Origin: a virus
Virus record (IMG/VR): IMGVR_UViG_3300009506_000009
Span: 1-64,000 of that record
DNA length: 64,000 nt
Reading direction: 5' to 3' (one strand)
Numbering within the stretch: the first letter of the stretch is position 1; each line of letters begins with the position of its first letter. A program made the translations under genes and the position numbers. This document shows positions 30,803 to 33,720 of this stretch, piece by piece. The notes beneath the pieces are model-generated. The model was given only the letters and a program-made list of their open reading frames with translations. It was not told the origin of the DNA and searched no databases.

Positions 30803-31336
30803 ATGAACAAGCTCTATTATGGAGGATCAGGTCTTCCAATTGAACCACGTGAAGTTAAATCTGTCTGTCGAGAATATAATATCCAAACCACAGATGGTAT
30901 GAGTCTATGCTTGGTTCTTGACTGGGACGGCCCATTTATGCAAGTGATGTATGTCAACGGAGAAGTGGAAGTTGTTGATCGTCGCTTCATGGGATGGGAG
31001 CGTCCACTACTACCAAATGGTAAACCAGACTGGAATGCTAATCGCCCATCACAAACACACTTCTATAAGACGATCCTCTCGAACCTTTATGGTCCAGTTT
31101 GCATGGCATGTGGTGTACCTGTCCAAATGAACGAAGATGGTATTACGGATAACCTAACCATCGACCATGTAATCCCTAGAGCAGAGAATGGCTGGTCTAG
31201 TCTTGATAACCTACAGCTTCTATGCAAGACGTGTAATGTTAAAAAGTCGGACTCCTATATTGATTATCGTCTTATGACCCCATCAGAAATCTTCTGGCTT
31301 TGGGCTGACCGATATGACAAACGAGTTAACGGGTGA
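30803..31336 (+). CDS. HNH endonuclease
   Basis: CxxC...TIDHVIP...NLQLLCKTCNVKK. Confidence 0.85.
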   Translation: MNKLYYGGSGLPIEPREVKSVCREYNIQTTDGMSLCLVLDWDGPFMQVMYVNGEVEVVDRRFMGWERPLLPNGKPDWNANRPSQTHFYKTILSNLYGPVCMACGVPVQMNEDGITDNLTIDHVIPRAENGWSSLDNLQLLCKTCNVKKSDSYIDYRLMTPSEIFWLWADRYDKRVNG

Positions 31337-31572: not shown

Positions 31573-31632
31573 TTGACAACTAGCTTGACCTGTAGTAGAA
31601 TAGGGACAGTCGGAACTTTAATAATCGAATAG
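31573..31632 (+). promoter_or_regulatory. Sigma70-type promoter followed by a boxA-like element, heading the second RNA operon
   Basis: TTGACA-17-TAGAAT, then GAACTTTAATAATCGAATAG. Confidence 0.65.
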
Positions 31633-31699: not shown

Positions 31700-31780
31700 G
31701 GTGCGTCTGGTCCTGGGAGAGATCAAGTGGCTGTAACCCACCCGCCAACGGCTGAGTAGGTTCGAATCCTACACGCACCA
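31700..31780 (+). tRNA. tRNA-Tyr(GTA)
   Basis: Long variable arm; loop CT-GTA-AC. Confidence 0.85.
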
Positions 31781-31784
31781 CTAT

Positions 31785-32069
31785 GGGCCTGCCCTGGCTT
31801 CGATTGTTGTCAGTATGCTTCGGTTTCTATCATAAAACATAATTGCAAACGAACCAACGTTAGCAGACGCTCTGTTCAGCGGCGTCCAATCCCTAGCTGA
31901 ACAACTGTTTTCTGCGCCCGTAGCAGTTGCGGCCTAATAGCAACTCTTGGTGGAGTCACCCTAGCCGTTATCCCCAGGTGACAAACTCTACTCAGTGAGT
32001 GACTGAGAATGATAGTAACAAACCAACAGTGAAATCAGCAAGACATCGGTTCAATTCCGATCAGGTCCA
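31785..32069 (+). ncRNA. ssrA: tmRNA; tag ANEPTLADALFSGVQSLAEQLFSAPVAVAA**
   Basis: Acceptor GGGCCTG/CAGGTCC with G3.U70, GGCTTCGA, T-arm; tag ORF 31845-31937 ending AA followed by two stops. Confidence 0.92.
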
Positions 32070-32323
32070 CTTCGCCACGCAGGGGCGACTAAAAATACCT
32101 GACACATGACCTTGGTATGTCAGAAACTACCCATTATTAGATGGCTTTAAAAAGGGCTGGCCTGCTAAACCAGTTACCGAGGAATAAAGTGGAGTAGCTA
32201 ACCATATAATACTTGGTCGAAATCTAACAAAGGCGGCGAGTCGCCGTCCACTGGATGCAAACGCAGTAACGGATAGGACAGTGCTTTGTAAAGATGCACC
32301 CCGGATCATGTAACCGGGATAAT

Positions 32324-32960: not shown

Positions 32961-33077
32961 CACTGAGTTTCATCAGTTCTCAGGCAACAAAGACTGAAGT
33001 GGTCCAGCCATGACTGCCTATCGACGGGTAGGTGTACGTTACAGCACACAGCATCGACGGATGGTGTGGGATTACGT

Positions 33078-33142
33078 TCGGACAGTGGTGTAATTGGAAG
33101 CATGCCAGATGTGGTAGGAAAGGTTCGAGTCCTTCTGTCTGA
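33078..33142 (+). ncRNA. tRNA-like RNA with a truncated anticodon arm
   Basis: Acceptor CGGACAG/CTGTCTG, D-loop AATTGGAA, mini arm CCA-GATG-TGG, T-loop TTCGAGT. Confidence 0.6.
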
Positions 33143-33148
33143 ATTTAT

Positions 33149-33223
33149 AGCGGAGTGGGGAAGCCCGGAGTTCCCGCCTGCCTTGGACGCAGGAGATCGC
33201 TGGTTCAAATCCAGTTTCCGCTA
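33149..33223 (+). tRNA. tRNA-Pro(TGG), atypical (A37, A1-T72)
   Basis: CCTGC-CT-TGG-AC-GCAGG. Confidence 0.8.
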
Positions 33224-33228
33224 CTTAT

Positions 33229-33300
33229 GGAGACGTAGCTCAGTGGTAGAGCGACGGTCTGAAGAGCCGTGCGTCGGTGGTTCGATCCCACTCGTCTCCA
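33229..33300 (+). tRNA. tRNA-Phe(GAA)
   Basis: Cloverleaf. Confidence 0.95.
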
Positions 33301-33301
33301 C

Positions 33302-33399
33302 TAACCTCTTGGAAAGTTGGCTTAAAAGCAGTCATCTTTTAAAGAGTGACGCCTGTGTCGTGCCTTTGAGTCTTTGGCGTAATAGCACACCAGAGGTTA
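33302..33399 (+). ncRNA. Stand-alone mimic of 23S rRNA H43/H44 (uL11-binding GTPase-associated centre)
   Basis: GTTGGCTTAAAAGCAGTCATCTTTTAAAGAGTG...GCGTAATAGCACAC closed by TAACCTCT/AGAGGTTA. Confidence 0.85.
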
Positions 33400-33417: not shown

Positions 33418-33720
33418 ATGGAATCAATAGAGTTTGAGACTAACCCCGATGGTGGGGTTAACCTATATGTTAACGACGTATTCATCTCCCCTAAGCGATC
33501 ACAGAAAGTATGGAACCATAGCCCCGATGGATTTAACATTGGGTACCATGGTTCTGGTCCTGCACAAACAGCTTTGGCTATCTTAATGTGCTTTACCATC
33601 GACAATAACGATCTGGCTGTTCGATTGCATCAGGACTTCAAGCGGGAGTTTGTTGCTAACTGGGAAGTTGGTACGGTTTATTATGTTGATGTTGACAAGT
33701 GGATCGAGGAGCACAAATGA
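33418..33720 (+). CDS. DUF6166-like protein
   Basis: HSPDGFxxGYxGSGPAQxALAIL motif. Confidence 0.7.
   Translation: MESIEFETNPDGGVNLYVNDVFISPKRSQKVWNHSPDGFNIGYHGSGPAQTALAILMCFTIDNNDLAVRLHQDFKREFVANWEVGTVYYVDVDKWIEEHK

Follow-up and report, generated by a model that had tools for sequence, protein, structure and literature searches.

A Compact Phage RNA Resembling the GTPase-Associated Centre of 23S rRNA and Its Apparently Undescribed Family

A Copy of the GTPase-Associated Centre among Phage tRNA Genes

Positions 33302-33399 on the plus strand of the window, i.e., the whole analysed stretch of 64,000 nucleotides, constitute a 98-base, self-closed copy of 23S rRNA 1051-1108, which comprises the end of H42 together with H43 and H44 (GTPase-associated centre, GAC). 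The element is among the most compact members of a large family of phage GAC-mimic RNAs with more than 150 homologues in unrelated phages. On the comparative evidence, the sequence of the RNA, its predicted secondary structure, and two predicted tertiary signatures are those of the GAC, and the family is under purifying selection in these unrelated phages. We class the element as a compact representative of a novel type of phage RNA, and its family is apparently undescribed. Region 33302-33399 is probably, if by no means certainly, the gene for a small stable non-coding RNA. The sequence-only reading of this DNA had recognised a GAC mimic that stands free within a phage tRNA operon and is closed by its own stem. 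This structural description is fully upheld by the match to E. coli rrlH, the score of a family covariance model (R1), and the element's own closing stem, and it gains further strength from the many covarying homologues.

Architecture of the Window Element

The numbering of 23S positions was fixed on the E. coli rrlH sequence. The letters quoted in the earlier reading are present at the positions given there, and the element indeed starts directly after tRNA-Phe (Table 1). Compared with rrlH, 42 of 50 positions are identical: 29 of 36 in the stretch 1055-1090 and 13 of 14 in the stretch 1091-1104. The substitutions relative to E. coli are G1056A, a compensated exchange of the pair U1058-A1080 for A-U, and C1075U, which retains a G.U pair. 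An alignment of GGAAAG with GGATG printed earlier turned out to be one base out, since there is no extra base at this place but just G1056A and the compensated 1058-1080 swap. The equivalents of A1067 and A1095 are kept in their loops, as had been noticed before. The element also carries the family signature A1101 (within GCACAC) and a C/C-G triple at 1072/(1092-1099).

In the closing stem, 33302-33309 and 33311-33312 pair with 33390-33399, which results in 10 pairs and one bulged U: 8 bp (TAACCTCT with AGAGGTTA) are followed by the bulged T and two G-C pairs. Between 1090 and 1091 the GAC copy is split by a 29-nt insert, composed of a 25-nt arm and a UUUG linker. This arm is the weakest among the members examined and consists of GAC/GUC, a G.A mismatch, a C-G pair, and a 15-nt loop.

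Folding by minimum free energy (MFE) fails to recover the GAC fold in the window and partly recovers it in the E. coli control. The GAC-like fold of the window element has an energy of -6.5 kcal/mol (-11.0 kcal/mol if constrained) versus -30.4 kcal/mol for an unrelated MFE structure; in case of the E. coli domain, the fold also lies above its own MFE, with a smaller gap (-9.1 versus -16.0 kcal/mol). An alternative pairing of the window element, ACGCC/GGCGU, would hide the H44 loop and is absent in L104, the one other member checked by eye.

Table 1. Features of the window element and its immediate surroundings. Positions are those of the window; numbers in brackets are 23S positions.
Feature	Position	Strand	Remark
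Sigma-70-like promoter match TTGACA-17-TAGAAT	31573-31601	+	Agrees with the consensus at 11 of 12 positions; precedes the tRNA-Tyr/tmRNA/tRNA run to which the element belongs
tRNA-Phe(GAA)	33229-33300	+	66.7 bits; discriminator base 33300, 2 nt ahead of the element's first paired base
Closing stem, 5' strand (counterpart of the H42 end, 1051-1055)	33302-33312	+	T33310 bulged
rrlH 1054-1090	33311-33347	+	
H43-like hairpin (1057-1081) with 1067 loop	33314-33338	+	A1067 equivalent is 33324
Junction UUAAA (1082-1086) and basal H44 5' strand GAGU (1087-1090)	33339-33347	+	
Inserted arm and UUUG linker	33348-33376	+	
Variable arm between 1090 and 1091	33348-33372	+	Basal arm pairs covary in the family
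Conserved UUUG linker	33373-33376	+	Family consensus UUUR
rrlH 1091-1105	33377-33391	+	
Apical H44 hairpin GC-GUAAUA-GC (1091-1100)	33377-33386	+	A1095 equivalent is 33381
Basal H44 3' strand AC (1101-1102), A1103, and closing stem 3' strand	33387-33399	+	
DUF6166 ORF	33418-33720	+	ATG 19 nt past the element, Shine-Dalgarno in between; not part of the RNA

Distribution of the Family

In cultured phages, blastn located the two halves, H43-like and H44-like, in gaps of the annotation of unrelated genomes. Carriers are Aeromonas phage 4_4572, Pseudomonas phages pf16, Astolliot, Milchi, and UNO-G1W1, Cronobacter phage GAP32, Pectobacterium phage CBB, Serratia phage BF, several Erwinia jumbo phages, Xanthomonas phages XbC2 and XacN1, Ralstonia phage RSP15, Acinetobacter phage ME3, and a Vibrio phage. 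The loci of 4_4572, GAP32, RSP15, pf16, UNO-G1W1, the Vibrio phage, ME3, and BF were inspected in sequence. A blastn match in Paenibacillus phage Pd_22F represents true 23S and was set aside. In UNO-G1W1 (L005 1272-1379), a minus-strand "hypothetical protein" CDS is annotated over the RNA, and hypothetical-protein CDSs are situated under the matches of Pseudomonas phage Milchi and Erwinia phage Kaldavass as well; we presume that these are annotation mistakes.

A 20-nt pattern of the H43 3' strand was found in 91 IMG/VR stretches, all of which contain complete elements except for one chance match and two truncations at contig ends. Together with the inspected cultured-phage loci and the window, these stretches form the non-redundant set of 70 sequences (n = 70). 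A gapped pattern revealed 10 further compact members with inserts of 26-49 nt, and a signature of the 3' half only was found in at least 120 stretches. On one IMG/VR contig (L110), two GAC-mimic RNAs occur approximately 1 kb apart, a compact one with a 49-nt insert (1119-1233) and a larger one (2174-2362). In prokaryote genomes, the H43 pattern predominantly matched ordinary uninterrupted 23S of CPR bacteria and cyanobacteria with U at 1092, and two family members on MAG contigs were found too.

The covariance model R1 was built from eight compact members with the window excluded. A search of this kind had been proposed in the earlier reading; it recovers the window element with 73.1 bits (E 3.4e-15) over model positions 1-98 of 98 as the sole match in 64 kb, and among the 3'-half matches listed, 49 of the 55 new loci match R1 as well. 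Real 23S rRNA sequences score 39-54 bits against the same model.

Covariation and Tertiary Signatures

Lack of covarying homologues in related phages had been named beforehand as an observation that would speak against the element; such homologues do exist, and every helix of the family covaries. In 52 model-aligned members, 96.4% of the cells are standard pairs, and in 14 of 21 pairs both partners have changed. The covariation score of these sequences is 0.605 versus 0.164 if shuffled (none of 500 shuffles reaches 0.605) and does not exceed 0.138 if the partners are slid. All 7 modelled pairs of the closing stem covary in the family. Since this alignment had been fitted to the model, the counts were repeated by fixed anchors. 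Pair 1058-1080 then occurs as A-U in 20, U-A in 19, G-C in 24, C-G in 4, and G.U in 3 members without any mismatch (n = 70). Ranked by mutual information, the top positions are exactly the predicted pairs and nothing besides.

The base triple 1072/(1092-1099) is C/C-G in 52, U/U-A in 15, U/U-G in 2, and C/U-A in 1 of the 70 members. The alternative U/U-A is that of real 23S in CPR bacteria and cyanobacteria. Indeed, the 23S genes of many Patescibacteria (CPR) and filamentous cyanobacteria (L114-L193) possess U1072/U1092-A1099 instead of C/C-G, which represents a natural swap of the triple. For the lone pair 1082:1086, U-A (15), C-G (12), A-U (5), and U.U (2) were counted in those members in which both positions are free of the search pattern.

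Positions G1059, U1060, G1071, A1073, G1091, G1093, U1094, A1098, C1100, and C1102 show no or almost no variation (n = 70), and position 1061 is free. Somewhat more variation is allowed at A1103 and C1104 (68 of 70 each), A1095 (65 of 70), and A1067 (59 of 70), the last of which is replaced by G or U in the other 11 members. Position 1101 is A in the family, resulting in a U1090-A1101 pair, versus U1101 in the real 23S sequences examined. In two members, L288 (9932-10127, minus strand) and L242 (814-979, minus strand), an extra hairpin is located in the H43-like 3' strand near 1077, beside the usual arm.

The Variable Arm and the UUUR Linker

Each member contains an insert at 1090/1091, composed of a helix with covarying basal pairs followed by UUUR, and a search of IMG/VR revealed no arm-less form with the family signature. 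The insertion of approximately 28 nt reported earlier is present in the window, with 29 nt, but it is not an incidental feature: the variable arm together with UUUR is universal in the family, and any mechanism must include both arm and linker. The linker is U in 70, U in 69, and U in 68 of the 70 members at its first three positions, followed by G in 59 and A in 11.

Arm and linker range from 29 to 304 nt in the 70-sequence set and belong to many unrelated sequence types. In at least 7 separate loci, the arm is cut down to a plain hairpin of 26-49 nt with the frame intact, which suggests that selection acts on the frame as such. A comparison of the arms with the remainder of 23S gave just scattered chance matches of 10-13 nt and no sarcin-ricin motif, and Rfam 15 at E up to 10 returned nothing over the arms of the window element and the eight cultured-phage loci.

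Genomic Context

A same-strand tRNA gene is located within 2.5 kb of 52 of the 70 members; for 44 members it is no more than 300 nt away, frequently just 10-20 nt. The window contains 36 tRNA genes and a tmRNA. Between the promoter match listed in Table 1 and the element, no terminator-like site was detected on the plus strand. The tmRNA (31700-32072, plus strand) comprises approximately 286 nt, starts 3 nt after tRNA-Tyr, carries a predicted tag of 30 residues, and scores 47.7 versus an Rfam cut-off of 47. A 119-nt Rfam tRNA match at 26978-27096 (plus strand, 48 bits) was not called by ARAGORN and may represent an intron-containing tRNA or one that carries a large insertion. An HNH endonuclease ORF (PF01844, E 2.5e-13) is situated within the tRNA region at 30803-31336 (plus strand). 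In Ralstonia phage RSP15 (L003 1695-1748), the tmRNA model, with its two ends joined, matches approximately 200 nt downstream of the GAC mimic (20.6 bits, E 7e-5), which suggests an unannotated tmRNA-like gene adjoining it.

No protein family is common to the neighbourhoods of the family; the top-ranking "family" is spurious, being an ORF antisense to the RNA. None of the loci studied shows linkage to a toxin or immunity gene. Neither a uL11 gene nor a RelA/SpoT domain was found in five carrier genomes, including that of the window.

Possible Functions

As the best explanation we favour, with some reservation, a stable phage RNA that would act as an off-ribosome mimic of the GAC and would probably capture a ligand of it. 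The element may be co-transcribed with the tRNAs and excised by tRNA-processing enzymes; cleavage at the 3' end of tRNA-Phe would put its 5' end at approximately 33301. The RNA would then adopt a GAC-like fold, aided by ions or protein, and would capture, away from the ribosome, a ligand that normally recognises the GAC. The first partner would most likely be uL11, because the isolated rRNA fragment 1051-1108 (58 nt) represents a complete high-affinity site for uL11 and thiopeptides. The phage RNA retains the RNA elements of this fragment. Due to the absence of uL11 and RelA/SpoT genes from the five carriers, this partner would be a component of the host. If ribosomes were deprived of uL11 in this way, RelA would be activated less strongly in the course of infection, and since RelA is blind on ribosomes without uL11, a benefit for the phage is plausible; the biological pay-off of uL11 capture is speculative.

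The leading hypothesis, a decoy that would titrate uL11 or stalk-base ligands and thus damp the stringent response or absorb effectors, is the one put forward in the earlier reading, and it is plausible. A trans-acting "spare ribosome part" that captures uL11, or absorbs toxins or factors directed at the GAC, and thereby blocks RelA signalling or shields ribosomes is a possibility that we regard as nearly balanced, leaning slightly towards the doubtful side. Several features weigh against the uL11 model, namely, the poor predicted fold energy, the weak arm of the window element, and the replacement of A1067 in 11 of 70 members. The short distance between the window element and the downstream ORF is a further counterpoint. 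The uL11 surface might, moreover, be occluded by the arm that every member has at 1090/1091 and by the additional H43 hairpin of L288 and L242. Because most uL11 is already bound to ribosomes, a sponge would require a high copy number or protein exchange.

The RNA might also draw off enzymes directed against the GAC, such as toxins or defence effectors modifying or cutting H43/H44, by serving them as a decoy substrate or a sink. A parallel would be the phage tRNA genes whose products replace or shield tRNAs struck by defence nucleases. The element is located in tRNA arrays, and the H44 loop bases G1093, U1094, A1095, and A1098 are the best-conserved exposed part of the family. Nevertheless, this explanation is unlikely: we know of no anti-phage defence system that targets the GAC, a sink of this kind would face the competition of tens of thousands of ribosomes, and the loci studied are devoid of a linked toxin or immunity gene. 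A natural toxin aimed at exactly the GAC exists in Tre23, which ADP-ribosylates 23S H44 around bases 1095-1098 (PMC8661411), but Tre23 is an interbacterial T6SS effector. Counter-defence by phage RNA mimicry has a precedent in pseudo-ToxI (PMC3475682).

It is rather improbable that the RNA provides an off-ribosome platform for translation GTPases or tRNA elbows, holding EF-G, EF-Tu, RelA, or tRNA via the 1067 and 1095 loops. Both loops are largely conserved, A1067 is stacked against the elbow of the A/R-state tRNA in the RelA complex (PMC5829649), and binding of EF-G to oligoribonucleotides mimicking the thiostrepton domain has been reported (Munishkin and Wool 1997, as cited in PMC5829649). 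However, off-ribosome contacts of this kind are weak, the arms offer no mimic of the sarcin-ricin loop alongside the GAC, and A1067 is not invariant.

A similarly low probability is assigned to the GAC fold being just a sturdy scaffold, with the real function residing in the inserted arm. The presence of an arm in every member, the large size of many arms (up to 304 nt), and conserved motifs in some arm types, e.g., CACCCCG-GNRA-CGGUAAGG in one group, are in agreement with such a role. These points are opposed by the many unrelated types of arms and by their reduction to a plain or weak hairpin in at least 7 loci, the window included; moreover, conservation is concentrated in the frame and the UUUR linker and extends to exposed loop bases, for which a mere scaffold would have no use.

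Regulation of the DUF6166 gene in cis, with the RNA as its 5' leader, is suggested by the position of the window element shortly before ATG 33418 with a Shine-Dalgarno in between. Since no gene family is common downstream elsewhere and most members are flanked by tRNA genes, we consider this highly improbable. The DUF6166 ORF itself has no relatives in IMG/VR.

Distinction from 23S rRNA Genes and Introns

The Rfam model LSU_rRNA_bacteria aligns 33310-33392 to its positions 1094-1147 with 13.6 bits and E 0.044 for a 401-base stretch; scored over the whole virus record, the same match reaches 18.7 bits and E 5e-5. No second LSU-like match occurs anywhere in this 98.9-kb IMG/VR record (98,893 bases), and thus, as had been claimed earlier, no further 23S sequence flanks the element. 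The element is not a genuine 23S gene or fragment (RF02541), which would have contiguous 23S sequence on both sides and a score above the cut-off of 50; the single match spans 83 nt and reaches 18.7 bits.

The region is present on contigs from two marine-sediment samples of one study, one of which may be the source of the record. The contig of the second sample is identical over 33000-33376, which spans the joint between tRNA-Phe and the element, and no variants were seen. An assembly chimera with host rDNA, which the sequence-only reading had listed among its own tests, is ruled out by this identical joint, the sole LSU match, and the covariation; nor is the resemblance a matter of chance, given the score with R1.

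A group I intron was considered as well and rejected. Introns of this group comprise approximately 200 nt or more. Intron_gpI gave no match in the window (E up to 10) or in eight related phage loci with arms of 127-265 nt (E up to 5-10). The arms are hypervariable, with lengths down to 26 nt, and the matching bacterial sequences are plain CPR and cyanobacterial 23S genes with U1092.

Except for the strong resemblance to 23S rRNA and an insert that is preceded by U and ends in G, as in a group I intron, an explanation as artefact or relic (host-rDNA assembly chimera, decaying captured 23S fragment, or intron with exon flanks) is contradicted by the data and its probability is next to nil, in view of the single LSU-like match in the record, the identical joint in the second sample, covariation of all helices, a closing stem unrelated in sequence to H42, the lack of any Rfam intron match, a 25-nt window arm far too small for an intron, and the ordinary uninterrupted 23S genes in the pattern-matching bacterial genomes.

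Relation to Known RNAs

The GAC of bacterial 23S rRNA (E. coli 1051-1108) shares with the window element the three helices, 42 of 50 letters, and the 1067 and 1095 loops, together with the U1060.U1078 mismatch, the free position 1061, the lone pair 1082:1086, and the 1072/(1092-1099) triple. In contrast to the ribosomal domain, the phage element is free-standing among phage tRNA genes with an unrelated closing stem of its own, and the phage family always possesses the arm and UUUR at 1090/1091 as well as A1101 instead of U1101.

Leaders of ribosomal-protein mRNAs are likewise RNAs outside the ribosome that imitate a protein-binding site of rRNA. The L10 leader mimics the neighbouring H42 site, and an L1-binding leader occurs in the L11 operon. 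These leaders differ from the phage RNA, since they act in cis in bacterial ribosomal-protein operons and their likeness to rRNA is loose. No Rfam leader family matched the window at E up to 10, and DUF6166 is encoded downstream instead of a ribosomal protein. An autoregulatory leader is also at variance with the absence of a uL11 gene from the five carriers and with flanks that usually consist of tRNA genes.

With other RNAs of phage tRNA arrays (tRNAs, tmRNA, GOLLD, and ROOL), the GAC mimic has its genomic setting and probably its co-processing with tRNAs in common, but no relation in sequence or structure. Phage pseudo-ToxI resembles it as a phage RNA imitating a host RNA to neutralise a protein, by which ToxIN abortive infection is defeated; unlike the RNA described here, it mimics an antitoxin repeat and not a ribosomal site, and its sequence is unrelated.

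Searches of Rfam 15 (gathering threshold and E up to 10) with the window and eight phage loci returned LSU rRNA alone over the frame. The full-text literature outside subscription journals yielded no description of such a phage RNA, nor did we find there any previous account of a functional rRNA centre that a virus encodes as a free-standing copy.

Biological Implications

The GAC is the site of action of uL11, the stalk, EF-G, EF-Tu, RelA-bound tRNA, and thiopeptide antibiotics. Because so many factors and at least one bacterial toxin act at this site, a conserved phage mimic of it points to an unexplored manipulation of translation or stress signalling. Due to the cultured carriers among the phages of Pseudomonas, Aeromonas, Cronobacter, Serratia, Erwinia, Xanthomonas, Ralstonia, Acinetobacter, and Vibrio, the family is directly testable, and the 98-nt copy in the window, being near the minimal natural form, is convenient for binding and structural work. 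If the interpretation as a spare ribosome part is true, the family would represent a new class of viral counter-measure that imitates a functional rRNA centre.
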